Positions 5,967 through 40,810 of a DNA stretch of 64,000 nucleotides are shown here, piece by piece. Each line of letters opens with the position of its first letter. Within the stretch, counting starts at the first letter, position 1. The stretch covers positions 11,116 through 75,115 of the forward strand of contig JAVZBY010000004.1 of assembly GCA_038874655.1 (NCBI GenBank). Reading direction: 5' to 3'. Source of the DNA: Candidatus Woesearchaeota archaeon (GTDB lineage: Archaea; Nanobdellota; Nanobdellia; Woesearchaeales; GW2011-AR15). The notes beneath the pieces were generated by a model. The model was not told the origin of the DNA. It was given only the letters and a program-made list of their open reading frames with translations, and made no database searches. The position numbers and the translations under genes are program-made.

Positions 5967-6890
5967 ATGGAAGAAGTATATGTTGTAGGACATTTAACAC
6001 CTGATACAGATACAACAGTTTCTGCTGTTTCAATGGCAGCTTTCTTAAATTTAAGAGATAAAACTAACAAATATAAACCTGCAATGACTGGAAAACCAAA
6101 CTCTGAAACAGAATATGTTTTCAAAAAATATAATTATGACTTGCCTCTTTTATTAGAAGATGCAAATGGAAAAAAATTATTTTTAGTAGACCATAATGAA
6201 AGCTCTCAAATAGTAAGAGGTTTTAGTACAGAAAATATTTTAGGTTTTGTTGATCATCATAAAATAAAATTTGAATGTCCTAATCCAATAGAAATAATAA
6301 CAAAACCATGGGGTTCAACTAACTCAATAATCTTTGATTTATATGAAAAAGAAAATATTAAACTTCCTGAGAAAATAAAACCCTTAATGTTATGTGCAAT
6401 TTTATCTGATACAGTTATTACAAAAAGCCCAACAACAACACCTAAAGACATCTATGTTATAGAAAAACTTTCTAAAGAATTAAAAATAGATTATAAAGAA
6501 TTGGGTATGGAAATTTTCAAAGCAAAAGCACAGATATCAAAAAAGACACCAGAAGAAATAATAAAAAATGATTTCAAAGATTTTGAATTTAATGGAAAAA
6601 AATTCGGAATTGGACAAATTGAAATGCCTTCTTTAGATGAAATAAAACCAAAATTCAATGATTTAATACAAAAATCAAAAGAATTAAAACAAAAACAGAA
6701 CTATCACACAATAATACTAATGCTAACAGACATAATTCAAGAAGGTTCTATCTTATTAGTTGTTAGCGATGAGGAAAACAAAATATCAGGCATATTTAAA
6801 ACAAAGATAAAAAATAATTTAACAGACTTCCTTCCAGGAGTATTATCAAGGAAAAAACAAGTTGCATCGAAAATTGCAGAGAATTTTTGA
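5967..6890 (+). CDS. ppaC: Manganese-dependent inorganic pyrophosphatase, family II (DHH phosphoesterase)
   Basis: Motifs HLTPDTD, LVDHNE and VDHHK of the DHH/family II PPase. Length of ~307 aa fits. SD GGTGA upstream. Confidence 0.7.
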   Translation: MEEVYVVGHLTPDTDTTVSAVSMAAFLNLRDKTNKYKPAMTGKPNSETEYVFKKYNYDLPLLLEDANGKKLFLVDHNESSQIVRGFSTENILGFVDHHKIKFECPNPIEIITKPWGSTNSIIFDLYEKENIKLPEKIKPLMLCAILSDTVITKSPTTTPKDIYVIEKLSKELKIDYKELGMEIFKAKAQISKKTPEEIIKNDFKDFEFNGKKFGIGQIEMPSLDEIKPKFNDLIQKSKELKQKQNYHTIILMLTDIIQEGSILLVVSDEENKISGIFKTKIKNNLTDFLPGVLSRKKQVASKIAENF

Positions 6891-6941
6891 TAAAAAAAAT
6901 TAATAACTAATTTTCTATTTTTTTGTTATTTTTTTAACATA

Positions 6942-7370
6942 ATGTTTTTTTATAATTCTTTTCACAAAAAAAATATGGATTTGGAAGATAGATTAAGTTT
7001 AACACCTATTAAGAATATTCCTATTTTTAAAGAAGCTTTTCTTGTTGCTAGAGCAGGTGTTCCTGGTTTAGATATTAGAGATGTTAAATTAGATGCTGAA
7101 ACTTATGTTTCTAATGTTTTAAGACAAAATTTGCCAAAAAGTTTAATCCCTGCAAATTTATACATAGGGGATAAAGATGCAATTAATTGTTTAATGGATT
7201 TGCATAGTCATCCTAAAGCATACACTTCGCCTTTTAATTCACCTACGTTTGATCCTAATTCAATTGGATTAACTTGCCCTAGATTAACCTTTGGTTATGA
7301 AATAGGTAATAATGAAGTATATTTGGTAATAGGAAGAAGTTATGCAAAAACTCCATTCTGTCATCATTAA
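6942..7370 (+). CDS. Hypothetical protein
   Basis: ORF only. No SD and no recognisable motif. Confidence 0.3.
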   Translation: MFFYNSFHKKNMDLEDRLSLTPIKNIPIFKEAFLVARAGVPGLDIRDVKLDAETYVSNVLRQNLPKSLIPANLYIGDKDAINCLMDLHSHPKAYTSPFNSPTFDPNSIGLTCPRLTFGYEIGNNEVYLVIGRSYAKTPFCHH

Positions 7371-18998: not shown

Positions 18999-20138
18999 TT
19001 AATCTACAAACTCTATTCCTAATTCTGATTCAATGTCCTTTTTCTTTTTCTCTGCCAACTTTTTACTAGAACCAAAGATTTGTGAGCTTTTTACTCCTGT
19101 AATTATTAAAATTGTTCTTATAGTGCCTTCTAAATCTTCTGAAATTTGCGCTCCCCATATAACTCTTGCATCTTCATCTAATTTTGTTGAAACAGTTTCT
19201 ACAACTTTTCTTGCTTCTTCTAAGGTCATATCTGGTCCGCCTGCAACATTTATTAAGGCTCCAGTTGCACCGCTAATATCAACATCCAATAATGGATTTT
19301 CAATTGCTTTTTGCACTGCTTCAATAGCCCTATTTTCAGAATCAGATTCACCTACACCAATCAAAGCAACTCCACCAGAGCCCATTATTGCTCTTATATC
19401 TGCAAAATCCAAATTAACTAAACCTGTTTTTGTTACTAATTCTGCAATACCTTTAACTGCATTTGTTAAGATTTCATCAGCAACCTTAAATGCTGTATGT
19501 AATGGTAAATCTGGTGCTAATTCTAATAATTTATCATTTGGAATAACAATTAAAGTATCAACATTTTTTTCTAATTTTTCTAAACCTAAAACAGCATTTT
19601 CATATCTTCTATTTCCTTCCATGGAAAAAGGCATTGTTACTATGCCTACAACCAAGGCACCTAATTTTTTAGCAACTTCGGCAACAACAGGCGCGGATCC
19701 AGTTCCTGTTCCTCCACCTAAACCACATGTAATAAAAACCATATCTGCTCCTTGTAAAGCGTTTTTTATCTCTGCTTCTTGTTCTCTAGCAGCTTCTTCA
19801 CCAATTTTTGGAATACTTCCTGCACCTAATCCTTTTGTCAATTCTTTTCCAATCAAAATTTTTTTATCTGCTGCTGTATACAATAAATCTTGTGCATCTG
19901 TATTTATAGCAATTGTCTCTGCTCCAGTAACACCCACTTCTGTAATTCTATTAATAGTATTATTACCTCCACCACCACAACCAACTACCTTTATAGTTGC
20001 TCTTTGTTTTGCCAATAATTCTTCTAATTCTTTATCAATAGCACTTTGTTTCATATGCTCAATAGAAACACCTTTTGGTGATAAAGAAGCCCTTTGTGTT
20101 CCTGATTTTATTATACTATCCAATATAAACACCTCCAC
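18999..20138 (-). CDS. ftsZ: Cell division GTPase FtsZ
   Basis: GGGTGTG tubulin signature and the full FtsZ fold sequence. Confidence 0.9.
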
Positions 20139-20301
20139 CCATTAAAATAAAAATTTACTAATAAAAAATTTATAATTACTTAATTGTAGTGCTAATATTT
20201 AAACTTTTATATTTCAAACTATATTCAAAACCTCTTTTTTAATAAAAATGAAAGATTAATAACAAATTAATAGTTAAACAAAATATTTATTTAATTATTT
20301 T

Positions 20302-30654: not shown

Positions 30655-32232
30655 ATGTTAATGGCAAATTATTTTAAAAAATTTGTATCTTTTAAGATTA
30701 AAAGCAGAAATGTAAATTTATATTTTTCCATTCCAAAAAATAGTTCTGAATTTAATGAAGACTTACTAAATAAAGAATTTGAATTTTTTAAATCCATTTT
30801 ATTAAAACAGCATCCTTTTTTTCAAGATAATAAATTTAAAAATAATTTTGACTTAGCAACTTTGCCTAGAGATAATGAAGCTGAAGAAGAAGAAAGACTA
30901 TTAGCAAAGGATATTTTGCAACTAAAATTAAATTTTAAATATGTAAAAAATATAAATGAAATTAAAGCACCTTCAATAAAATATTTTGAAGAAAAAACTA
31001 TCATGCTTTTAGCACCTTTAATTGGACAAATATTAAAGAGTGATAATAATGTTATTCCTGATGGAGAAGGGGATTTCACAGTAAAAGTTAAAATTGGTAA
31101 AGCTATGGATTTAGGTGAAGAAAATTTAGCTATTGTTTATGAAACGCTCTCTGATTTAGAAACCTTATATCTAGGCTTTCATTATCAATTAATTGCAAGA
31201 TATCTAGTTTTTCCCTATTATCTTAGTGGTGAAAAAACATTTTTTAGTGCCTTTCCTATAAAATGTATAATACATGAGATTCAACATTATAAACAAATGA
31301 CTTTTACTAATTGGGAAAGAAAAGTAAAAAATGCCATAGAAGAAAAATTTACTACTCCTTCTAAATTAAGTCCAAATTCATTATTATTATTTTGGGCCTT
31401 ATGTGAATTATACAAAGAAGCTGAAGCATATTTCATGGATTCAAAAAAAAATCAAAGAAGAAAAATAGACATGAATTGGATCTATAATTTCAGAAAAAAT
31501 TTATTCACTATGGTCTCTCTTCCCAAAAATGAAAAAGAATTATGGGAATTTTATAACAAATATATCGATGAAAACACCTCTTTATATGTTAATGCTCTAT
31601 TAATGATGGCTACAATCTCTTTTGCTGAAGCAAAAAAAGATGGTCATCCTGAACAAATAATCTTATATAAAGATGTCAATCCAGAAATAAAAAAATTAGT
31701 TAATGAAATTGAAGTTATGATAAATGTTCTTTTAAATAATAATAGTGAGAATCTAAATCTTTTAAAAAATAAGATAATTGAATTATACAAATTACTAAAA
31801 CCTTACCTTCCTTATCTAATCGCTAACAAATTAAGAGAAAATATAAATAATCTCTATAATAATAATTTAACAATAATAAAAAAAGGATGCTTAATTATTA
31901 AAAATGAAGTTTTACCTTTTTATGATAGATTTGATTTGTCTAAATTAAATGAGATCATGACAAAAGAAAAAATATTTTATTATGGCCAAGTTCCTGAAAT
32001 TTATGTTAATAGAAGTTTTAATTTTGTAAAAAATTATGTTACATCTACTGGTAAATTATCTCCTGCAACACATTTCGGTTTTATAAAGAAATATGAAGAT
32101 GCATGCAACATTTTAAGAATAGACAGAAACAATAGAGTAATTGATTTATTTTTTTATAAAGAATTAAAAAAATTGACTCTCGAAAAAGATAAAAAAATGT
32201 CAGAACAAAAAGAGGCATATTTATTAGGATAA
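30655..32232 (+). CDS. Hypothetical protein with an HExxH motif
   Basis: 525 aa with no signal peptide. The only candidate catalytic motif is IIHEIQH. Confidence 0.35.
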   Translation: MLMANYFKKFVSFKIKSRNVNLYFSIPKNSSEFNEDLLNKEFEFFKSILLKQHPFFQDNKFKNNFDLATLPRDNEAEEEERLLAKDILQLKLNFKYVKNINEIKAPSIKYFEEKTIMLLAPLIGQILKSDNNVIPDGEGDFTVKVKIGKAMDLGEENLAIVYETLSDLETLYLGFHYQLIARYLVFPYYLSGEKTFFSAFPIKCIIHEIQHYKQMTFTNWERKVKNAIEEKFTTPSKLSPNSLLLFWALCELYKEAEAYFMDSKKNQRRKIDMNWIYNFRKNLFTMVSLPKNEKELWEFYNKYIDENTSLYVNALLMMATISFAEAKKDGHPEQIILYKDVNPEIKKLVNEIEVMINVLLNNNSENLNLLKNKIIELYKLLKPYLPYLIANKLRENINNLYNNNLTIIKKGCLIIKNEVLPFYDRFDLSKLNEIMTKEKIFYYGQVPEIYVNRSFNFVKNYVTSTGKLSPATHFGFIKKYEDACNILRIDRNNRVIDLFFYKELKKLTLEKDKKMSEQKEAYLLG

Positions 32233-32265: not shown

Positions 32266-33648
32266 TTAATTTTTTAGTTCATCTTCAAATATCTTATATA
32301 ATCTCTTCTTGAATTTCAAAGGTATTGTTCTAGAATCATGAATTCCGTAATATTTCTTTTTTAATTCCTCTGCTCTTGGTTCTACACTTTTTAATAATTC
32401 TCTTTTAAATTTATCTATTAGTTCTCCTTTAAAACCATTCTTATAAGCCAAGTAAAATGCATATAATTGCTCTTCTGAACCACAACCTGAAGCATCATAA
32501 CCGACAGAACAACCTTCTTTTTTTTCAACACCAAAACAAGAAAATAAATGCTCGTTTTCTTTAACTAACATGTCAGTCCTAAACCCAATACTTTTCGGAT
32601 CTAGATTATTAGCTAACATAAAAATATAAATTCTAGCACACTTAGAGCAATGCTCACACCAATAATGCTTTTTTCCATATTCATTTTCATCTGGAAAACA
32701 AGACATTTGATATTTACCAATTTCTTTATATCTCTTGTGAAGAATTTTCATAATAGCTAACTCATACAAAGGTTCAATAAAACTTGACACATTCATTCCT
32801 GTTAATAAAAAAGCCATATTATCCATTTCTTTTACCCAAAAACTTGTTTGATCATATACAGGATAACTTAAATATCCATCTTTATTAATATAAGTATCAT
32901 CGCAACTTTTTTCATCACCAAATAAAATATATTTTGCTTTTTCATAATAAGCTATGGGCATTATATCAAAGAAAAGTTCTGTCATTAAATGACCATATCC
33001 TAACTCTGTTCTAGGTAATTTCCAAAACCTATAATCATGAATTACACCTGTACTATTTTCAAAAGTATAAACCTTGACATTAAATTCTTTGGAAAATTTT
33101 TTAATTAATTCCTTTTTATATTCATTTTCTAATTTAACTGCATTATCTAACATAAAAACAGGAATTGGCTCTAAACCTAATTCTTTTGCTAGTGCAAATG
33201 TCAATAAACTATCTTTACCAAAAGACATATTTACTATTACTTTTTCTTTCAGATCAATCTTTTCTTTTGGATACTTTATTTCATAATTAGCAAAAGAAAC
33301 CTTCAAATTCAAAAAATTTTTAATTTGTAATTCTGTTGAAACATTATCTACATCAGCACAAAAACTTAAATTGTTTAAATGTGCATTAAATATTTGTTGT
33401 TTAAATAAAGGATAAGAAGTTTTAAATTCAATCTCTTTTAAATTTGAATTAGAAAATTTCCAATTTTGACTTAACATCTGTGGTAAGTGCAAAACTTTTA
33501 GATATGCATAATTATCAATAAAAATATCTTTGAGATATTCTGGATAATTATCCCATATATCTTTAGAATAAACTAAAAAAAAATCTTTTTCATCTATTGT
33601 TAATTTTAAACCATTATCTGTTTTTTTACAATCAACTTTCATTTTCAC
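32266..33648 (-). CDS. PP-loop ATP pyrophosphatase superfamily protein (PAPS-reductase/QueC-like) with C-x15-C-x2-C-x2-C motif, paralogue A
   Basis: MSFGKDSLLTFALA P-loop of the SGGKDS type. YQMSC..WCEHCSKCARIY cysteine cluster. Aligns along its whole length with the ORF at 35786..37183. Confidence 0.5.
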   Translation of the reverse strand: MKMKVDCKKTDNGLKLTIDEKDFFLVYSKDIWDNYPEYLKDIFIDNYAYLKVLHLPQMLSQNWKFSNSNLKEIEFKTSYPLFKQQIFNAHLNNLSFCADVDNVSTELQIKNFLNLKVSFANYEIKYPKEKIDLKEKVIVNMSFGKDSLLTFALAKELGLEPIPVFMLDNAVKLENEYKKELIKKFSKEFNVKVYTFENSTGVIHDYRFWKLPRTELGYGHLMTELFFDIMPIAYYEKAKYILFGDEKSCDDTYINKDGYLSYPVYDQTSFWVKEMDNMAFLLTGMNVSSFIEPLYELAIMKILHKRYKEIGKYQMSCFPDENEYGKKHYWCEHCSKCARIYIFMLANNLDPKSIGFRTDMLVKENEHLFSCFGVEKKEGCSVGYDASGCGSEEQLYAFYLAYKNGFKGELIDKFKRELLKSVEPRAEELKKKYYGIHDSRTIPLKFKKRLYKIFEDELKN

Positions 33649-33704
33649 AACACTCTATACATTGCTTATCTTTATCATTATTTTTATTTCTTAAATTCTA
33701 ATTA

Positions 33705-34787
33705 CTACCTTCTCAACAAATTATCATTTCTTAACTCAGCACTTAATTCTTTTAATAATCCATATCTTTTCATTGCTTCATATAGAATGCTTAAAATAAT
33801 ATCATCATAACTCATTCCTGCTGTAAAACATGCTTTTGGAAATCTTGAATTTTCCAAAGGATCTGGCATCAATCCAGGCAATGCATTAATCTCTAAAACA
33901 TTCGGAATTCCATTTTTATCCAATCTTATATCTAATCTTGCTAAATCCACACATCCTAAAACTTTAAATGTTTTCAAAGAAACAGCTTTTATCATTCTTT
34001 CTAATTCTTTTGAAATTTGTGCTGGACAAACTACAGGATCAACTGGATTATTTGGATTATCCCAAATCCATTTAACCTCATAAGAATCAAACTTATTAAC
34101 ATGTTCTGGTAAATAATCAAAAGTCACTTCTACAATTGGCATTACTTTTGGAGGATTATTTCCCAATATTGCTACTGTAAATTCTCTACCCTCTAAATAT
34201 TCTTCAACTAAAGCTTCTTGATGATAATTATTTATAACAAATCTTAATTGTCTTCTTAATTCCTCTTCGTTCTTTACTAATGAATCATTTCTTATTCCTT
34301 TTGATGAACCTTCTGCATTTGGTTTTACAAAAAGAGGAAAATTTAACTCTGGATTTAATTTTTGATTCCAATTACTAAAAATCTGAAATTTTGGTGTTGG
34401 AACTCCATAATATTGTAAAATTTCCTTTGTTCTTCTTTTGTCCAAAGTTAAAGCTTGAGTAAAAACACCACTTCCAGTATAAGGTATTCCGAGCATATCT
34501 AAAATAGCAGGAACTTGACTTTCTCGAGAACCTCCATTTAAACCTTCAGCTATATTAAAAACAAAATCATAATTACCATATTTAATTTTTTCAAAAAAAT
34601 CTTCATTTGCCTCAACAATTTCAGCAATAAAACCCTTTTTTTCTAATGCATTTTTAATTGCAGTTGGAACTGCCAAATTATCATACTCAGCATAATAATC
34701 TTCTGGCATATTTGCAGGTGGCTCTTTTTTTAAATTAAAAGCAACTGCAATTCTTGGTATAGGGTTTTTAAAAACAAACTTTTTCAT
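33705..34787 (-). CDS. ddl: D-alanine--D-alanine ligase family ATP-grasp enzyme
   Basis: NIAEGLNGGSRESQVPAILDMLGIPYTGSGV..LDKRRTKEIL parallels the DdlB block [43 protein letters not shown]. C-terminal LEINALPGL ATP-grasp motif. Confidence 0.75.
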   Translation of the reverse strand: MKKFVFKNPIPRIAVAFNLKKEPPANMPEDYYAEYDNLAVPTAIKNALEKKGFIAEIVEANEDFFEKIKYGNYDFVFNIAEGLNGGSRESQVPAILDMLGIPYTGSGVFTQALTLDKRRTKEILQYYGVPTPKFQIFSNWNQKLNPELNFPLFVKPNAEGSSKGIRNDSLVKNEEELRRQLRFVINNYHQEALVEEYLEGREFTVAILGNNPPKVMPIVEVTFDYLPEHVNKFDSYEVKWIWDNPNNPVDPVVCPAQISKELERMIKAVSLKTFKVLGCVDLARLDIRLDKNGIPNVLEINALPGLMPDPLENSRFPKACFTAGMSYDDIILSILYEAMKRYGLLKELSAELRNDNLLRR

Positions 34788-34812
34788 TTATATAGACCTC
34801 CATTTTTATTTT

Positions 34813-35154
34813 TTAAAAATACTTATCCTCTATTTTAGTATTATTTATAATAGCATTAATTATTAAAAAAAATCTTTTAAAATGAGAATAAAAAACAAAA
34901 AATAAAATCAAAATAATTGTAAAAAGAAAAAAAATCTCTAACAAAATAGGATTAAACCCTTTATTAAGGATACTCAATCTATCTCTAAAAAACTGATTAA
35001 CAAAAAATTGACTATAAAAAAGATTTAAATTTAATAAAATTAGAAAATTATAAAATAGACTTGAATTTAAAAATCTAGAATTTAAACTAAACTTTATCAA
35101 ACCTTTTTTAAAAGAATCAATCCTGAAAGACAAACTCAATTGCCTATTTATCAT
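34813..35154 (-). CDS. Small hypothetical membrane protein
   Basis: 113 aa with two predicted TM segments. Lies between the ligase and the acidic peptide gene. Confidence 0.3.
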   Translation of the reverse strand: MINRQLSLSFRIDSFKKGLIKFSLNSRFLNSSLFYNFLILLNLNLFYSQFFVNQFFRDRLSILNKGFNPILLEIFFLFTIILILFFVFYSHFKRFFLIINAIINNTKIEDKYF

Positions 35155-35342
35155 TTAGCTTTTATCACTTCCTTTTTTATTTTTATATTTTGAGTTTATC
35201 TTTGAAATTTTCACAATAGTTATATTTCAAAAAATTATTTTTAACAAAAAAATAAAAGAAAAAGTGGTATATAAATTTATTCATTTTTTTTATCACTTAG
35301 CAAAAAAAATTATTTCTTTCATTAATCTAAAATTGTAAAAAT

Positions 35343-35543
35343 TTAATACTTATCCTCATCATCTTCATAATCTTCGTAATCTTCGTCATCATAGTCTTCA
35401 TCATCATAGTCTTCATCATTATAGTCTTCATCATCATAGTCTTCATCATAATCTTCATCGCTATACTCTTCGTCATCATATTCTTCGTCATCATATTCTT
35501 CAACAAAATCTTCATCTTCATAATCTTCTTCGTGTCTAGCCAT
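35343..35543 (-). CDS. 66-aa poly-acidic Tyr-repeat peptide (D/E-x-D/E-Y tandem repeats)
   Basis: SD GGAGGT 4 nt upstream of ATG 35543. Sequence MARHEEDYEDEDFVEEYDDEEYDDEEYSDEDYDEDYDDEDYNDEDYDDEDYDDEDYEDYEDDEDKY. Coded by 15-bp tandem DNA repeats. Confidence 0.5.
   Translation of the reverse strand: MARHEEDYEDEDFVEEYDDEEYDDEEYSDEDYDEDYDDEDYNDEDYDDEDYDDEDYEDYEDDEDKY
35360..35520 (-). repeat. Imperfect tandem array of a 15-bp unit (catcatagtcttcat family) within the acidic peptide CDS
   Basis: At least four near-perfect consecutive copies over 35387..35450, with degenerate copies on either side. Confidence 0.6.
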
Positions 35544-35547
35544 TTTA

Positions 35548-35553
35548 ACCTCC
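35548..35553 (-). promoter_or_regulatory. Shine-Dalgarno GGAGGT for the acidic peptide gene
   Basis: Minus strand reads ggaggt-taaa-ATG, identical to the RBS context at 15123. Confidence 0.55.
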
Positions 35554-35785
35554 ATCCACACAAATAACTGAAATTTTAGTAAAATCAAATCTATTTAAAT
35601 CTTATTTTTTTTTAGAAACTAAAAAAAATTTAAAACAAAATTTATAATTTGCAAAAAATAATTTACAAATAATTAAAAAAATAGAAACTTATTTAAAGAG
35701 AACCTTTAATAAATAATATTAAAAATATATTTTAAAAAATAGTAAAAAAATTAAGAATAAAAATTATAATTAAAAAAATTAAAAA

Positions 35786-37183
35786 ATGGATGAGCTTTCT
35801 ATAAAATACAGCATATCAAAAAAAGGATTTAATGTAAGAATAAATAATAAAACCTATTCAATAAAATATCCGCAAATAATTTGGGAAACTTTCCCAAAAA
35901 AAATTAAAAAAATAACAATTGAAAATTTTGTTTTTTTAACTACATTTACATTACCAATGCTCTTAAATAAAAGAAAAGCATTTTTTCACATGAATTCTCC
36001 TTTATTAGGAAGTTTTTTTGTTAAACCAATTTTATATTATATCCCTGCATGTGCTGATGAATATAACAGAGATAGCTTTACATTACTAAAAAGGTTTATA
36101 AACTCCACTTATGATTTTAAATCTTATAACCCAACTTTTTTTGATTATAATCCTAAAGTTAATTACAGAAGTGTTCATTTATTCACATTTGGAAAAGATA
36201 GCTTGCTTTCTTATTGCTTAGCAGAAGAATTGAAATTAAATCCTATTTTATTATATGTCGAAGAGCCTGACACAGCATATAAAGATAAAAATGGAAAAAT
36301 AAAAAAAACATATGAAAACAAGCACAAAGACATATTAATAAAAAAATTTAGTGAAGAATTTAAAAAACCTATTTATAAGATAAAACATCAATTAAGCTTA
36401 ACAAGAGAAGCTCCTCACTTAGGTGTTGATGAACCTGAATTACCTTATGGCTCTCAATTAACTGAATATGCTCTATTAACTATTCCCTTTAACCATTACT
36501 TTAAAGCAAAATACATGGTATATGGGAATGAAGCAAGCTGTTCAAGTACTTATGTAAATAAAGAAGGCTTTATAACAAACCCTGTTTATGATCAATCCGG
36601 TGAATGGGTAGTTGAAATTTCTAAGGTTTTGAAAGTATTGACAAAAAAAATGTCAGCAATTTCTTTAATAGAACCAATCCATGAATTATTAATCACAAAA
36701 ATTTTACACACTAGATATCCAAAGCATGCTAAATATCAGATGTCTTGTATGGCAGCAAACAATTATGCAAAATATTCAAGATGGTGTCATAATTGTTCAA
36801 AATGCGCTAGAATGTATGTTTTTTTAAAAGCATTTAATATTGATGTTAAATCCGTAGGTTTTAAAGAAGATATGTTCAAAAAAGAAAAAATGCATTTTTA
36901 CACTTTATTTGGTAAACCTGAAGAAAATGCATTACCTTATGATTTAGCAGGAGTTGGCAGAGATGAAATGTTATTAGCTTTTTATTTATCTTACAAAAAT
37001 GGTTCAAAAGGTTATTTGATTAAAGAATTTGAAAGAAAATTTTTAAAAGAAGCTGAACAAAGAAAAAATGAACTTTATAAAGAATTTTTCAGCATTCATG
37101 AATCTTTAACAATACCAAAAAGAATGCACAAAAAAATAATTAACATATTTAAAGAAGAAATAGAAAAACTAAATTTACCATAA
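35786..37183 (+). CDS. PP-loop ATP pyrophosphatase superfamily protein with C-x15-C-x2-C-x2-C motif, paralogue B
   Basis: LFTFGKDSLLSYCLA P-loop and YQMSC..WCHNCSKCARMY. Shared blocks with the 32266 ORF: PVYDQ, IEPxxELxIxKILH, AFYLxYKNGxKG. Confidence 0.5.
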   Translation: MDELSIKYSISKKGFNVRINNKTYSIKYPQIIWETFPKKIKKITIENFVFLTTFTLPMLLNKRKAFFHMNSPLLGSFFVKPILYYIPACADEYNRDSFTLLKRFINSTYDFKSYNPTFFDYNPKVNYRSVHLFTFGKDSLLSYCLAEELKLNPILLYVEEPDTAYKDKNGKIKKTYENKHKDILIKKFSEEFKKPIYKIKHQLSLTREAPHLGVDEPELPYGSQLTEYALLTIPFNHYFKAKYMVYGNEASCSSTYVNKEGFITNPVYDQSGEWVVEISKVLKVLTKKMSAISLIEPIHELLITKILHTRYPKHAKYQMSCMAANNYAKYSRWCHNCSKCARMYVFLKAFNIDVKSVGFKEDMFKKEKMHFYTLFGKPEENALPYDLAGVGRDEMLLAFYLSYKNGSKGYLIKEFERKFLKEAEQRKNELYKEFFSIHESLTIPKRMHKKIINIFKEEIEKLNLP

Positions 37184-37276
37184 TAATCTAAAAATCAACT
37201 AAAAAAACTTGAAAAAGCATAATTACTTAAAAATTACACAAAAAGAGATATAAAGAACTACCTTTTTTTTATATTA

Positions 37277-38290
37277 ATGAAATTAATCAAAGTAAAAGGG
37301 ACTAATTATCAAATTGGTTATAAATTAGGCCACATATTTTCCTCTGCAATAAAATATAGAATAAAAAAATTTAAAATAACTAAAAGATTAATTGATTCTA
37401 AAAAAGATTATTTAGAAAAAACTTTAAAACTCTGTGAAATATACCCTAATTACTTACTTGAATTAAAAGGAATTTCTGATGGCTCTAATACAAATATTTA
37501 TGAAATTTTAATGCTTAATTTACTAGGATTACTTGATATAAAAAGATGTAGCACAATAGCATATAAAGGAAAAAATAGTTTTATTGCTCATAATGAAGAT
37601 GGGGACACTTTTGAAAGAAAAAAAGATTTTGCATTAATAAAATATGAAAAAATAATTAATGAAATAGAATACAAAAATAAAAATAATAAAAAAAACAAAA
37701 AATTTTATTTTTACTCATACTTTTATCCTGGTGAACTTTTAGGAGCAACATTTTCATGGAATTCTTATGGTTTAATAATAACTGTTAATTCAATAAGGTC
37801 TAGATTAAGCAATATTCCAAAACTGCCAAGAGTTTTTGTAGCAAGAGCACTATTAGAAGCAAAAACAATAAATCAAGCAATTAAAATAATAAAAAATTCA
37901 AAAAGCTCTGGTGGCTTGCATTATCTTATAATGAAAAAAACAAATAAAAAATCAAACAATGTAAAAGAAATAGTTTCAATAGAAAGATATCAGAATTCTA
38001 CTAGTATTGAAAAAATAAATAACATTTATATTCATACTAATCACTATATTCACAAAAAATTTCTAAATAAAACAAAGCCACATAAAAATTCTGTAATAAG
38101 ATATGAAAGATTAAAAGAATTAATAGAACTGCATAGAGATAAAATAATAAATGCAGATAAAGAAATTCTTTTAAAAATTATGAGAGATAGAAAAACAAAG
38201 CCAAACTCAATATACAACAAAAAAAATGATACCAATCAAACTCTTGCTACTTTTATAGCTTTGAAAAATAAAAAATATGTATTTTTATAA
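37277..38290 (+). CDS. Peptidase C45 / acyl-CoA:6-APA acyltransferase-like Ntn hydrolase
   Basis: N-terminal G.NYQIGYKLGH. Candidate nucleophile in KRCSTIAYKGKN, followed by IAHNEDGD, as in the C45/choloylglycine-hydrolase superfamily. Confidence 0.5.
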   Translation: MKLIKVKGTNYQIGYKLGHIFSSAIKYRIKKFKITKRLIDSKKDYLEKTLKLCEIYPNYLLELKGISDGSNTNIYEILMLNLLGLLDIKRCSTIAYKGKNSFIAHNEDGDTFERKKDFALIKYEKIINEIEYKNKNNKKNKKFYFYSYFYPGELLGATFSWNSYGLIITVNSIRSRLSNIPKLPRVFVARALLEAKTINQAIKIIKNSKSSGGLHYLIMKKTNKKSNNVKEIVSIERYQNSTSIEKINNIYIHTNHYIHKKFLNKTKPHKNSVIRYERLKELIELHRDKIINADKEILLKIMRDRKTKPNSIYNKKNDTNQTLATFIALKNKKYVFL

Positions 38291-38326
38291 AATAAATCAA
38301 AAATAAAAAAATAAAAAAAATTTTTA

Positions 38327-40090
38327 TTAAAAATTAATTAAAGGTATTATATCTGAAATTTTTAACTTTTTTCTTGTAATTAATAATCTAGCAAAAAAGA
38401 ACAACAAAAAAAAGAAAAATATTATCAAAGTTTCTTTTACTAAAAACATTAAATTTAGTTCATTCAATAAAATTAAATCTCTTAACAAAGAGATTCCATG
38501 TGTCATTGGCATAAAAGGTGATATAAATTGAAAAAACCCTGGAGAAGTTTCAATTGGAAAAGTTCCTGCTCCAGAAGTAAGTTGAAGCATCAATAAAATT
38601 ATAGCAATGATTTGTCCTATTTTTCCAAATAAAACCATAACAAATTGAATTATAGCTAAAAATGTCCATGATAAAAATACTGTATAAATTAAAAAAAGTA
38701 AAATATTTTTAGGTTGTAATCCTATAAAAAGAATTAATGAAAAATCCAAAATTAATGCTTGTAATAAAGCCAAAATTGCTGGAAAAATTGATTTGCCTAA
38801 TGTAATAGAAAAATCTGAAAATTTTGAAATAATTAAACTATTATCTCTCTGATTTACAAATATCATAATAATTAACGCACCAACCCACAATGCAAGTAAT
38901 ATAAAATAAGGAGATAATGCTTCTCCATAAGTTTCTGCATTATCTTTACTTACATCAATGACAATAACAGGATTAAACAACATTTCTGATTTTTCCCTTA
39001 TTTTCTGTTCAGAAAAATCCTTTTTCAAATTATCACTTGCTTTTGCTAATTCTGAACTCAACTCATTTGAACCGTAATAAGACAACTTTATTCCATTTTC
39101 TAAAGTTGAAATACCTCTTTCTAATTTTCTAGAACCCTCTCTTAATTTTTGGCTTCCTTCATAAATCTTCTCTAAATTTTCACTTAACTTATATGAGCTT
39201 AAATAAACCTCATTATGCGCATTAACAAAAACAGAATTTTGTTTTTTCAAAAATTCCATTTTTAATTTATAACTAGGATCTATTACACCTTTATCTGCCA
39301 ATGAAGAGATTAAAACAGATAATTCATCTATATTTGAAGAAAATTGTTTGCTTCCTTCATATAATCTTTTATTTGCCTCTGCTAATTTTTCTGAACCATC
39401 TTTTACTTTATTTAAATAAAAACTTATATCTTCAATCCCTTCACTTAATTGATTACTTCCTTCTTTTAAAAGATTGCTTCCTGACTTTAATTTTTTAATT
39501 CCATTGCTTAAATCAGTTGAAACATCAGAAGCTTCAGACATATTATTTAGTAAAGATTCTGAAATTGGAATAATTTCATCTACATACTTATCTCTTATTT
39601 TTTCCTTCAAAGAATTATTTAACTCTTTAACTATTTCAAAACTTATTCTAGAACCTAAAAAATTATTAACATCTCTTTTCTCAAAAAATATTTCTGCTTT
39701 AACTGGCTCTTCTTTTATAGAAAAAACATTTTTAGTAAAATCTTTTGGTATAATTATAATTCCATAATATTTCTTATTATATAATCCGCTCATAGCTTCA
39801 TCATAATTAATAAAATAAAAATTAAAGTCCTTATTTTTCATTTCATCAATTAGCTCATCACCTAAATTTCTGTAATCACCATTATAAATATAACCTAAAT
39901 CTTGATTAACAACTGCTATTGGTAAATTTTTAACATTTCCATAAGGATCCCAAAAAGCCCATAAATAAAGAAAACCATAAATTAAAGGAATAAGTAAAAT
40001 AACAATTATAGCCAAAATCTTAAAAGGATCTCTTAAATATTTTTTAATTTCTGAAATTGCAATAAATAAGCTATCTTTCATTATAAACAC
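38327..40090 (-). CDS. YhgE/Pip-domain membrane protein (ABC-2 type permease with a large extracytoplasmic helical repeat domain)
   Basis: N-terminal TM helix. Extracellular region with repeated L..GS..L.EGS heptad-like units. C-terminal cluster of five TM helices typical of ABC-2. Confidence 0.65.
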   Translation of the reverse strand: MFIMKDSLFIAISEIKKYLRDPFKILAIIVILLIPLIYGFLYLWAFWDPYGNVKNLPIAVVNQDLGYIYNGDYRNLGDELIDEMKNKDFNFYFINYDEAMSGLYNKKYYGIIIIPKDFTKNVFSIKEEPVKAEIFFEKRDVNNFLGSRISFEIVKELNNSLKEKIRDKYVDEIIPISESLLNNMSEASDVSTDLSNGIKKLKSGSNLLKEGSNQLSEGIEDISFYLNKVKDGSEKLAEANKRLYEGSKQFSSNIDELSVLISSLADKGVIDPSYKLKMEFLKKQNSVFVNAHNEVYLSSYKLSENLEKIYEGSQKLREGSRKLERGISTLENGIKLSYYGSNELSSELAKASDNLKKDFSEQKIREKSEMLFNPVIVIDVSKDNAETYGEALSPYFILLALWVGALIIMIFVNQRDNSLIISKFSDFSITLGKSIFPAILALLQALILDFSLILFIGLQPKNILLFLIYTVFLSWTFLAIIQFVMVLFGKIGQIIAIILLMLQLTSGAGTFPIETSPGFFQFISPFMPMTHGISLLRDLILLNELNLMFLVKETLIIFFFFLLFFFARLLITRKKLKISDIIPLINF

Positions 40091-40120
40091 CTAATTTATA
40101 CCTTTTGTTTATGTTTAATT

Positions 40121-40810
40121 TTAAATTATGTTTAATTCTCCTTTTTCAATAAAAAGTACTCTATTAGCAATCATTAACTCTTGTTTTCTTTTTGTCGTGA
40201 AAATAAGAGTTTTTTCTTTAATTAAAGGTTCTATCTTTTTCCAAAAAAATATCATATTATCTTCACTCAATTCTTTTGTAATTTCGTCTAATAACAAAAC
40301 TTCTGGATCAGAAATATATGCTATCAAAAAAGATATGAATGCTTTTTCAACAGCACTTAAATCTTTAATACTTTTATTTGATATTTCAAACAATTTCAAA
40401 AAATTTTTTATCTTATCATTAGAAAAGGAAAGTTTTAAGCTTTTAGCATAATATTCAAGAATTTCAAAAATATCAAAATCCTCAAAAATAGGTTTAATAT
40501 TTTCTATAGCTGAAACTCCTATCTTAAGTTTAATATCTGCTTTTTCATAAAAAATAATCTCTCCTTTATGTTCTAAAAAACCTGCCATGCATAAAATTAA
40601 TAAGGTTTTTCCACTCCCAGAATCACCATAAATTGCAATTTTTTCTTTTTCAAAAACTTCAAATGAAATACCCTTTAGTAGTGGTTTATTAAAAAAATAT
40701 AAACTTAGATTATTTACTTGTAAAATTCTTTTTCTAGTTAAGTTATCTTTTTTAAAATTGAAATAATACTTTGATTTATTCTCTATATTTAACATAATAA
40801 AAGAGAACAA
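40121..40810 (-). CDS. ABC transporter ATPase-like protein with a degenerate signature motif
   Basis: Walker A GDSGSGKT and Walker B LLLDE are intact. The LSGGQ position reads LSAVEKAF. Adjacent to the YhgE permease. Confidence 0.55.
   Translation of the reverse strand: MFSFIMLNIENKSKYYFNFKKDNLTRKRILQVNNLSLYFFNKPLLKGISFEVFEKEKIAIYGDSGSGKTLLILCMAGFLEHKGEIIFYEKADIKLKIGVSAIENIKPIFEDFDIFEILEYYAKSLKLSFSNDKIKNFLKLFEISNKSIKDLSAVEKAFISFLIAYISDPEVLLLDEITKELSEDNMIFFWKKIEPLIKEKTLIFTTKRKQELMIANRVLFIEKGELNII

Follow-up and report, generated by a model that had tools for sequence, protein, structure and literature searches.

ATP-grasp ligases work through acyl-phosphates, which they form and then couple to amines, and PP-loop enzymes adenylate carboxylates or equivalent groups. 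Here we describe a locus within a 64,000-nucleotide stretch of a Candidatus Woesearchaeota archaeon genome (assembly GCA_038874655.1, contig JAVZBY010000004.1, positions 11,116 to 75,115 of the forward strand; hereafter the window), in which the gene for a ligase of the Ddl (D-alanine--D-alanine ligase) family is followed by that of a PP-loop ATPase remotely related to the epimerase MurL. The closest described arrangement is the alternative D-Glu route of Xanthomonas oryzae, where the murL gene adjoins that of the ligase MurD2, and MurL, in an ATP- and Mg-dependent, AMP-releasing reaction, turns the C-terminal L-Glu just added by MurD2 into D-Glu (PMC5808125; PMC8788868); this epimerization is unidirectional, from L to D (PMC5808125).

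MurL has so far been a one-off, an ATP-driven peptide epimerase known only from peptidoglycan synthesis in a few bacteria. We find a sizeable sister family of MurL whose genes are tied to that of a Ddl-type ligase; the pairing is seen in Bathyarchaeia, Asgard archaea, Aigarchaeota and DPANN archaea, lineages that are not known to contain murein. What differs from MurD2/MurL is (i) the ligase, which belongs to another superfamily, (ii) the hosts, and (iii) the extra partners. An earlier note, made from the letters of the window without database searches, had presented this locus as a single peptide-modification or envelope-polymer unit, assembled around a tiny acidic peptide. All of its open reading frames (ORFs) were confirmed in place, and profile searches (Pfam and NCBIfam) agree with its family assignments; the genes that it listed do not form one unit, however, and it missed the remote relationship to MurL, the one informative link. 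Its statement that no described pathway matches holds: we found no published description of an archaeal ligase/MurL-like module in the open-access literature. The genes of main interest are the following.

33705-34787, minus strand: Ddl-family ATP-grasp ligase, 360 aa, first core gene (Pfam Dala_Dala_lig_C, 130.6 bits)
32266-33648, minus strand: MurL-like PP-loop ATPase, paralog A, 460 aa, second core gene (NCBIfam NF041275, MurL)
35786-37183, plus strand: MurL-like PP-loop ATPase, paralog B, 465 aa, paralogous to A, facultative member

The conserved ligase/MurL-like gene pair

We gathered 96 related loci (designated L001 and so on), searched 86 of them by tblastn with the window proteins, and clustered the ORFs of 90 loci together with those of the window, using simple ORF calling and clustering. 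Because the 80 genome loci are those closest to the query alignment, the frequencies given here are descriptive. Taxonomic labels of metagenome-assembled genomes (MAGs) may be wrong, and several "bacterial" or Methanosarcinales loci resemble mis-binned archaeal contigs.

The conserved core of this locus is the ligase gene plus the MurL-like gene, not a single peptide-modification cluster. Of about 90 loci, 67 have a Ddl-like gene adjoining a MurL-like gene, bearing out the co-localization on which the earlier note had made its reading depend; the pairs have a median gap of 57 bp and lie on the same strand in 72 of 75 cases. In the window, the paralog A gene is 57 bp downstream of the ligase gene. 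The pair is found in Bathyarchaeia, Thorarchaeota, Borrarchaeum, Aigarchaeota and DPANN, and a Ddl-like gene was present in 33 of 35 loci from Bathyarchaeia, 7 of 7 from Thorarchaeota, 2 of 2 from Borrarchaeum, 3 of 3 from Aigarchaeota/Nitrososphaeria, and a variable share of those from DPANN. A Ddl-like gene, or a fusion between KamA and Ddl, lies directly upstream of each of the six A-type genes (gaps of -43 to +57 bp), and 59 of 73 basal, TACK/Asgard-type MurL-like genes adjoin a Ddl-like gene. Among the B-type genes, one adjoins a ligase gene, six have one within 4 kb (e.g., L008-L012), and 12 stand alone.

Two architectures recur. In TACK and Asgard archaea the order is PALP< MurL> Ddl> GNAT>, often followed by a gene for an AIG2/GGACT-like or a C_GCAxxG_C_C protein. 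The pyridoxal-phosphate (PLP) enzyme in these loci matches NCBIfam PRK06381, "threonine synthase", with 380 bits (cut-off 266), an annotation that is probably wrong in this context; in 44 loci, a PRK06381-type gene is found no more than approximately 1.7 kb from the MurL-like gene, as a rule divergently (e.g., L003 8747-9832). In DPANN, a KamA-family radical S-adenosylmethionine (radical-SAM) enzyme is accompanied by one to three Ddl paralogs and one or two MurL-like genes, with GNAT-like genes in clusters L008 and L012. A triad of GNAT, ATP-grasp and PP-loop genes is present in 38 loci. Across the roughly 90 loci there is no recurrent Mur-family ligase, MraY or MurG-like gene; neither a glutaminase domain nor such a subunit accompanies the MurL-like gene as a conserved feature of the clustered loci; and no QatA/B/D, CD-NTase, deazaguanine or tRNA-modification genes were found near the MurL-like genes of these loci. 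A PADLOC search of the core genes returned no match, and the defense role that a likeness to QatC and Cap9 might have indicated was rejected on this ground.

Several DPANN loci (L018, L028, L033, L060 and L015) carry tandem MurL-like pairs with no ligase gene near. In L018, one tandem copy (6135-7268) is shortened, only 26% identical, and possibly decaying. The gene for an MgtE-like magnesium transporter and a neighbor follow downstream of the tandem pairs in L018, L028 and L033.

The PP-loop proteins and their relation to MurL

Paralogs A and B are 38% identical over 461 aa (E 1e-103). In a family alignment of 24 sequences, the PP-loop [FS]FGKDS (SFGKDS in paralog A) and four cysteines, C321, C334, C337 and C340 in the numbering of paralog B, are invariant, as expected from the earlier description of two paralogous ATPases sharing a four-Cys cluster. 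The C...CxxCxxC pattern of these residues is the zinc motif of QueC (PMC13329287), and by this motif the proteins have a QueC-type Cys4 site for a putative metal. The family is large: a word-indexed search gave 489 clusters at 90% identity, and an exhaustive search of a representative library (50% identity) gave 186 members at E <= 1e-30, a number that rises to 452 at E <= 1e-10 and to 1,300 at E <= 1e-3.

The only NCBIfam model that matched paralog A was NF041275, MurL (E 5.4e-6). The two window proteins score 25.2 and 24.8 bits with this model and do not reach its equivalog cut-off of 700. When 24 diverse family members were scanned singly, all 24 matched MurL and none matched any other of the 18,950 models (best E 1.1e-12). 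These matches are colinear, spanning model positions 230-443 of 447, and weak matches of two distant relatives push the coverage back to approximately position 129. The comparison was made by NCBIfam profile, not against an authentic MurL sequence or structure, and it points to a relationship at the superfamily level, not to orthology. The distant matches in the representative library are all annotated "hypothetical", and none is closer to MurL.

Pfam yielded only sub-threshold matches for the PP-loop proteins, to PAPS_reduct, ATP_bind_3 and QueC (E 0.02-0.2), the last (PF06508) at 12.6-14.6 bits (cut-off 22), and a sequence search of the PDB with paralog B returned no match even at E 10. The Rossmann-like core, with its SGGxDS-type PP-loop, is superposable on QueC, and the structural neighbors are QueC, QatC, Cap9, ThiI, TilS, NcsA and TtuA. 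An N-terminal domain of approximately 120 aa and a C-terminal helical domain are family-specific additions. The archaeal proteins thus have a PP-loop core and a Cys4 motif like those of QueC, Cap9 and QatC, but they are twice the size of QueC, carry N- and C-terminal domains of their own, and are encoded in loci with neither a deazaguanine nor a defense context. With QueC below cut-off and no tRNA-modification context, they are not orthologs of TtcA, NcsA or QueC, an identity that the earlier note had weighed; a few Joint Genome Institute (JGI) records label homologs "7-cyano-7-deazaguanine synthase". We infer that MurL-type proteins belong to the QueC-like PP-loop fold. This placement is ours, because it is made neither in the published survey of the QueC family, which includes neither this clade nor MurL, nor in the MurL papers, according to which MurL "lacks known conserved domains" (PMC5808125; PMC8788868).

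The archaeal loci are like MurD2/MurL of X. oryzae in placing an amino-acid ligase gene beside a gene of the MurL superfamily. They are unlike it in that the partner is a Ddl-type ATP-grasp enzyme and not a Mur-family ligase; that the loci, which come from archaeal hosts, contain no murein genes; that scores of 25-45 bits stand against a MurL cut-off of 700, the archaeal activity being a predicted one; and that the aminomutase fusion, the PLP enzyme and the GNAT protein are archaeal extras.

The Ddl-family ligase

The window ligase shares the fold and the catalytic residues of D-alanine--D-alanine ligase. It aligns to Ddl structures in the PDB (E about 1e-30) and scores 199.7 bits with the best NCBIfam Ddl model, under that model's cut-off of 243. 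Aligned with Escherichia coli DdlB, whose numbering is used here, it keeps K97, K144, E180, K215, R255, D257, E270 and N272, as well as the Glu equivalent to E15, within an AE[YF]D motif. In contrast, the catalytic-triad residue Y216 is replaced by Trp in the DPANN group and by Thr in TACK, and the S281/L282 loop, which holds the second D-Ala, is exchanged for a longer segment, MPDPLENSRFP. Because the catalytic residues are intact while the D-Ala specificity positions are altered, the protein does not look like a canonical Ddl; rather, activity is to be expected, with substrates that are not D-Ala/D-Ala. An exact-sequence look-up of the window ligase returned no record.

Ligase orthologs further differ from Ddl in lacking a murein context and in being fused to an aminomutase-like enzyme. 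Single ORFs of 685-708 aa that join a KamA-like protein to a Ddl-type ligase were found in three loci.

L010 6554-8611, plus strand: KamA-family radical-SAM/Ddl fusion ORF
L012 5750-7876, minus strand: KamA-family radical-SAM/Ddl fusion ORF
L053 45-2138, plus strand: KamA-family radical-SAM/Ddl fusion ORF

The ligase half of the L010 and L012 fusions is approximately 68% identical to the window ligase, and the aminomutase-like enzyme of the DPANN loci scores 496 bits with AblA and 463 bits with glutamate 2,3-aminomutase. As Rosetta-stone evidence, these fusions suggest that the ortholog group of the window ligase acts on the product of a 2,3-aminomutase, that is, a small beta-amino acid, and they point to a small-molecule substrate and not a ribosomal peptide. 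L065 shows the same aminomutase-ligase arrangement, except that an apparent frameshift interrupts the ligase part.

Paralog B, the acidic ORF and the C45 protein

Paralog B rarely lies by a ligase gene, is often alone, and is present in bacterial contexts, and it is therefore a mobile, facultative member. Its neighbors in the window include three elements that are found beside it in one narrow lineage.

35343-35543, minus strand: poly-acidic ORF, 66 aa, with Tyr every ~5 residues; lineage-specific neighbor of paralog B
35548-35553, minus strand: GGAGGT ribosome-binding-like element, 4 nt before the ATG of the acidic ORF
37277-38290, plus strand: C45-family N-terminal nucleophile (Ntn) hydrolase/acyltransferase, 337 aa; lineage-specific neighbor of paralog B

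In L088 and L089, paralog B is 75% identical to that of the window and the gene order is acidic ORF < > paralog B > C45, followed by L15e, S6e and RadC. A metagenome scan for nearer relatives again returned the L089 lineage only. The B gene of L087 is 82% identical to the window's and has neither an acidic ORF nor a C45 gene beside it. L087 comes from the same MAG (GCA_038889695.1) as L097, whose B gene is identical to the window's and is accompanied by C45; this MAG accordingly holds a second B copy, 82% identical and with other neighbors, indicating either two paralogs or a mixed-strain bin. B-type genes of 67-69% identity stand alone in L013 (CAZVDF010000002.1) and on the P0004 contig, near an RND efflux operon, OEP, histidine-biosynthesis genes and Omp85/BamA, a Gram-negative bacterial context that suggests recent transfer between archaea and bacteria.

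The acidic ORF runs from an ATG at 35543 to a stop at 35343 (MARHEEDYEDEDF...DEDKY) and is made of approximately 10 copies of a 15-nt repeat. With this start, the divergent spacer is 35544-35785; the earlier note, which had described the Tyr-repeat peptide correctly as far as the ORF itself is concerned, began the spacer at 35589. The 15-nt repeat also leaves a second frame open on this strand (35343-35563, minus), for 78 aa with MMKT repeats. The GGAGGT element precedes the ATG by 4 nt in the window and by 8 nt in L088, lies inside the shared segment ATGGAGGTT, and stands out in a genome of 24% GC. A gene finder called the ORF as a 66-aa gene on the independent assembly L096. The counterpart in L088/L089, MKKHRNEDEEYEDEEDL...GDEDW, has 40 aa and the same divergent position and orientation, and both proteins have a basic-then-acidic N-terminus and a C-terminal aromatic residue (Tyr in one, Trp in the other). 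The Tyr periodicity is not conserved in the counterpart; acidity alone is kept.

We scanned the window and about 1.3 Mb of related loci for ORFs of 25-150 aa that start with ATG and have a D+E fraction of at least 0.5, and the only matches were the window ORF and its L088/L089 counterpart. Since this counterpart was the sole find and lies at the same position, the acidic ORF is more than chance, and it seems to be a genuine gene, restricted to this clade. Within 900 bp upstream of the other B-type genes, no small acidic ORF (D+E >= 0.28) was found, and none of the 86 loci searched by tblastn carries the acidic ORF; the conservation that the earlier note had anticipated extends to L088/L089 and no further among these loci. 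The ORF is linked, if at all, to paralog B and C45 in one narrow lineage, not to the conserved module.

The C45 protein matches NF040521 with 154.2 bits (cut-off 85) and Pfam AAT with 102 bits (cut-off 23.2). At residue 91, its KR-CSTIAY sequence is similar to the site at which isopenicillin N acyltransferase is cleaved, G-CTTAY, and may be a cleavage site as well. The gene adjoins paralog B in L088 too, yet tblastn found none in L001-L086, and homologs are rare (11 at E <= 1e-10). In L094, from another Woesearchaeon, a C45 ortholog 60% identical to the window protein has unrelated neighbors and no MurL-like gene; the 508-aa protein encoded next to it is neither MurL-like nor an HExxH protein. 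Given this rarity and the unrelated neighbors of the L094 ortholog, C45 was rejected as a general partner of the MurL-like proteins.

Proposed mechanism and alternatives

We tentatively favor a two-enzyme module in which a Ddl-type ligase makes a dipeptide-like conjugate and a MurL-like enzyme adenylates its C-terminal carboxylate and epimerizes that residue. The proposal starts from the conserved gene pair, the fold of the PP-loop/QueC type, the remote but specific homology to MurL and the aminomutase-ligase fusions, from which we infer the order of the reactions, the adenylation of a carboxylate, the epimerization outcome, and the nature of substrates and product. The product would be a small non-ribosomal peptide or amino-acid conjugate. 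The ligase would join two amino acids through an acyl-phosphate, the first being in relatives probably a beta-amino acid from the fused or adjacent lysine-2,3-aminomutase-like enzyme; the MurL-like enzyme would adenylate the new C-terminal alpha-carboxylate (ATP -> AMP + PPi); and, by analogy with MurL, the residue would then be turned from L to D, following the ligate-then-epimerize logic of MurD2/MurL in Xanthomonas. Paralog B would perform the same chemistry as a second and more mobile enzyme; its own neighbors, the acidic ORF and C45, would have been acquired in this lineage.

Several observations weigh against this proposal. The similarity to MurL is remote, so that only adenylation chemistry, and not the epimerase outcome, can be assumed; there is no solved MurL structure or mechanism for comparison; and the nearest solved structures, those of QueC, Cap9 and QatC, form amides or nitriles and not epimers. 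Paralog B, so often alone and present in bacteria, may have an independent function. Finally, the 64-kb window has no aminomutase, PLP enzyme, GNAT or AIG2 gene, and, with the first three of these missing, its gene content does not indicate the substrates in this organism.

The same two proteins could instead pass the adenylated carboxylate to ammonia or an amine, with amidation, nitrile formation or another peptide bond as the outcome. A di- or oligopeptide, N-acetylated and amidated, would then result, for instance a compatible solute, made by the logic of N-acetylglutaminylglutamine amide (NAGGN; Ngg + AsnO) or as a ligase-extended form of Nepsilon-acetyl-beta-lysine (AblA + AblB). We regard this as somewhat unlikely, although a good deal speaks for it. 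Beta-lysine and beta-glutamate derivatives are archaeal osmolytes, the aminomutase of the loci is AblA-like, the nearest solved folds (QueC, Cap9 and QatC) are amide-forming, and DPANN clusters with up to three ligases and two MurL-like genes fit stepwise chain building. In NAGGN synthesis, Ngg combines GNAT and ATP-grasp, and AsnO, a PP-loop amidotransferase, amidates the Ngg dipeptide (PMC8070244); other PP-loop enzymes, including TsrC and PesC, amidate or nitrilate peptide C-termini (PMC13060819). The GNAT, ATP-grasp, PP-loop and aminomutase-like classes of these osmolyte systems (PMC8070244) all occur in the extended operons, with the triad in 38 loci and the GNAT-like genes of L008 and L012 as examples. 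The match is one of classes, however: the ATP-grasp enzyme is Ddl-type and not Ngg-type, the PP-loop protein is of the MurL/QueC type and not of the asparagine-synthetase type and has no glutaminase domain, and the window has neither GNAT nor aminomutase, nor an Ngg-type fusion or AsnO-type enzyme. What sets this alternative behind epimerization is that the family matches the MurL model and no amidotransferase, QueC or asparagine-synthetase model, that no glutaminase domain or subunit is conserved, and that GNAT is missing from the window.

The reading of the earlier note resembles the biosynthesis of a RiPP, a peptide made on the ribosome and modified after translation, or of an envelope polymer: an acidic precursor would be modified by the ligase, the PP-loop enzymes and C45, and exported by the YhgE/ABC pair. 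Here the acidic ORF does look real, in view of its GGAGGT element, its kept position in L088/L089 and the gene call on L096; it is unique, bar this counterpart, in about 1.3 Mb scanned, and is co-oriented with the ligase and paralog A. Known PP-loop enzymes of the group of PesC nitrile synthetase, TsrC and AsnO adenylate the C-terminal carboxylate of peptides, ribosomal ones included, and the nitrilobacillin cluster also has an HExxH enzyme and a transporter, a superficial likeness to the gene list of the note (PMC13060819). Those enzymes are, however, asparagine-synthetase-like with glutaminase domains, the HExxH protein of the window is an ORFan without an NCBIfam match, and the acidic peptide is not conserved with the archaeal enzymes: more than 60 loci have the core pair without the acidic ORF, which contradicts a locus built around it. 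YhgE/ABC is missing from L088, C45 and MurL-like genes are linked in no more than two lineages, the ligase orthologs are fused to an aminomutase, and the Tyr periodicity is not kept in L088, so that we judge this reading highly improbable. Even less probable is a role in building a murein- or pseudomurein-like wall, with the module making its D-amino-acid stem peptides. In bacteria, both Ddl and MurL are enzymes of peptidoglycan synthesis (PMC8788868), but none of the Mur-ligase, MraY or MurG-like genes that a wall pathway brings to mind recurs in the loci, and the ligase is under the Ddl cut-offs with its D-Ala-binding positions altered. Murein is not known from the host lineages, and no relevant Ddl-like link was found in the pseudomurein literature. 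We give hardly any weight to a role in nucleic-acid or nucleobase chemistry, be it tRNA thiolation or lysidine modification, QueC-like deazaguanine synthesis, or QatC/Cap9-type defense. The structural neighbors listed above and the few JGI names would fit such a role, but no model of a tRNA enzyme was matched, QueC stays below cut-off, and PADLOC returned nothing on the core genes; the genes are tightly tied to an amino-acid ligase and not to those of the Qat, CD-NTase or deazaguanine systems; and the large N- and C-terminal domains are family-specific and not present in those enzymes.

If the ligate-then-epimerize proposal is right, abundant uncultured archaea make small peptides with D-residues, possibly beta-lysyl and N-acetylated, without racemases. 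D-amino acids would then have a new source, and the product would be a candidate osmolyte, cofactor or envelope building block. The annotations "D-alanine--D-alanine ligase", "threonine synthase" and "hypothetical protein" would be corrected accordingly. The system is compact, with two to four genes, and is suited to reconstitution in E. coli.

An improbable further idea concerns paralog B: together with C45, it might act on the C-terminus of the acidic protein (...DEDKY; ...GDEDW in L088), the terminal aromatic residue being adenylated and then epimerized, amidated or re-ligated. Were this so, a MurL-type enzyme would have a ribosomally encoded substrate in an archaeon, an arrangement loosely like the tyrosination cycle of tubulin, which acts on that protein's acidic tail; C45 would supply the activity for removal or transfer.

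Flanking genes and other features of the window

The window has approximately 24% G+C, and archaeal ribosomal-protein genes adjoin the region studied. Proteins that match those of the window exactly belong to MAGs of Candidatus Woesearchaeota. The remaining features of the locus are as follows.

34813-35154, minus strand: hydrophobic ORF, 113 aa, doubtful gene
38327-40090, minus strand: YhgE/Pip ABC-2 permease, judged outside the module
40121-40810, minus strand: ABC ATPase, judged outside the module
30655-32232, plus strand: HEIQH-containing protein, 525 aa, ORFan, judged outside the module

Tblastn of the 86 loci found no homolog of C45, YhgE, the HExxH protein or the 113-aa ORF. The last, which the earlier note had reported as a small membrane protein on the minus strand, is present as an ORF and was called by the gene finder on L096; it has no family match and no homolog in any locus searched. 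Because a counterpart is also missing upstream of the L084 ligase, itself 85% identical to the window's, this ORF may not be a gene.

The HExxH protein, placed by the earlier note at the other flank, has no family match in Pfam, NCBIfam or PADLOC, and a search among 5.8 billion clusters returned only a match to itself. A role as an aKG-HExxH tailoring enzyme was rejected, there being neither a family match nor a homolog.

The permease matches TIGR03061 (160 bits) and TIGR03062 (181 bits), both over cut-off. The ABC ATPase matches ABC_tran (E 2.5e-15) and has a Walker A motif, GDSGSGKT, and a signature that is degenerate, as had been noted, reading LSAVE in place of LSGGQ. Its best PADLOC match is mad3 (E 5e-14), which is probably generic ABC similarity. 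The exporter had been counted as part of the cluster. In L088, however, C45 leads straight to L15e/S6e/RadC (L088 2845-3003, corresponding to window 38327-40810), and because the pair is missing from this otherwise syntenic locus, we consider it an indel and not a component. The YhgE/ABC pair and the HExxH ORFan are accordingly judged to be bystanders.

Elsewhere in the window, the FtsZ gene (Tubulin and FtsZ_C domains; 18999-20138, minus strand) is wholly overlapped by an antisense frame (19033-20145, plus strand). This frame has 370 codons and no family match, and its stop-free length is unexpected at 24% G+C.

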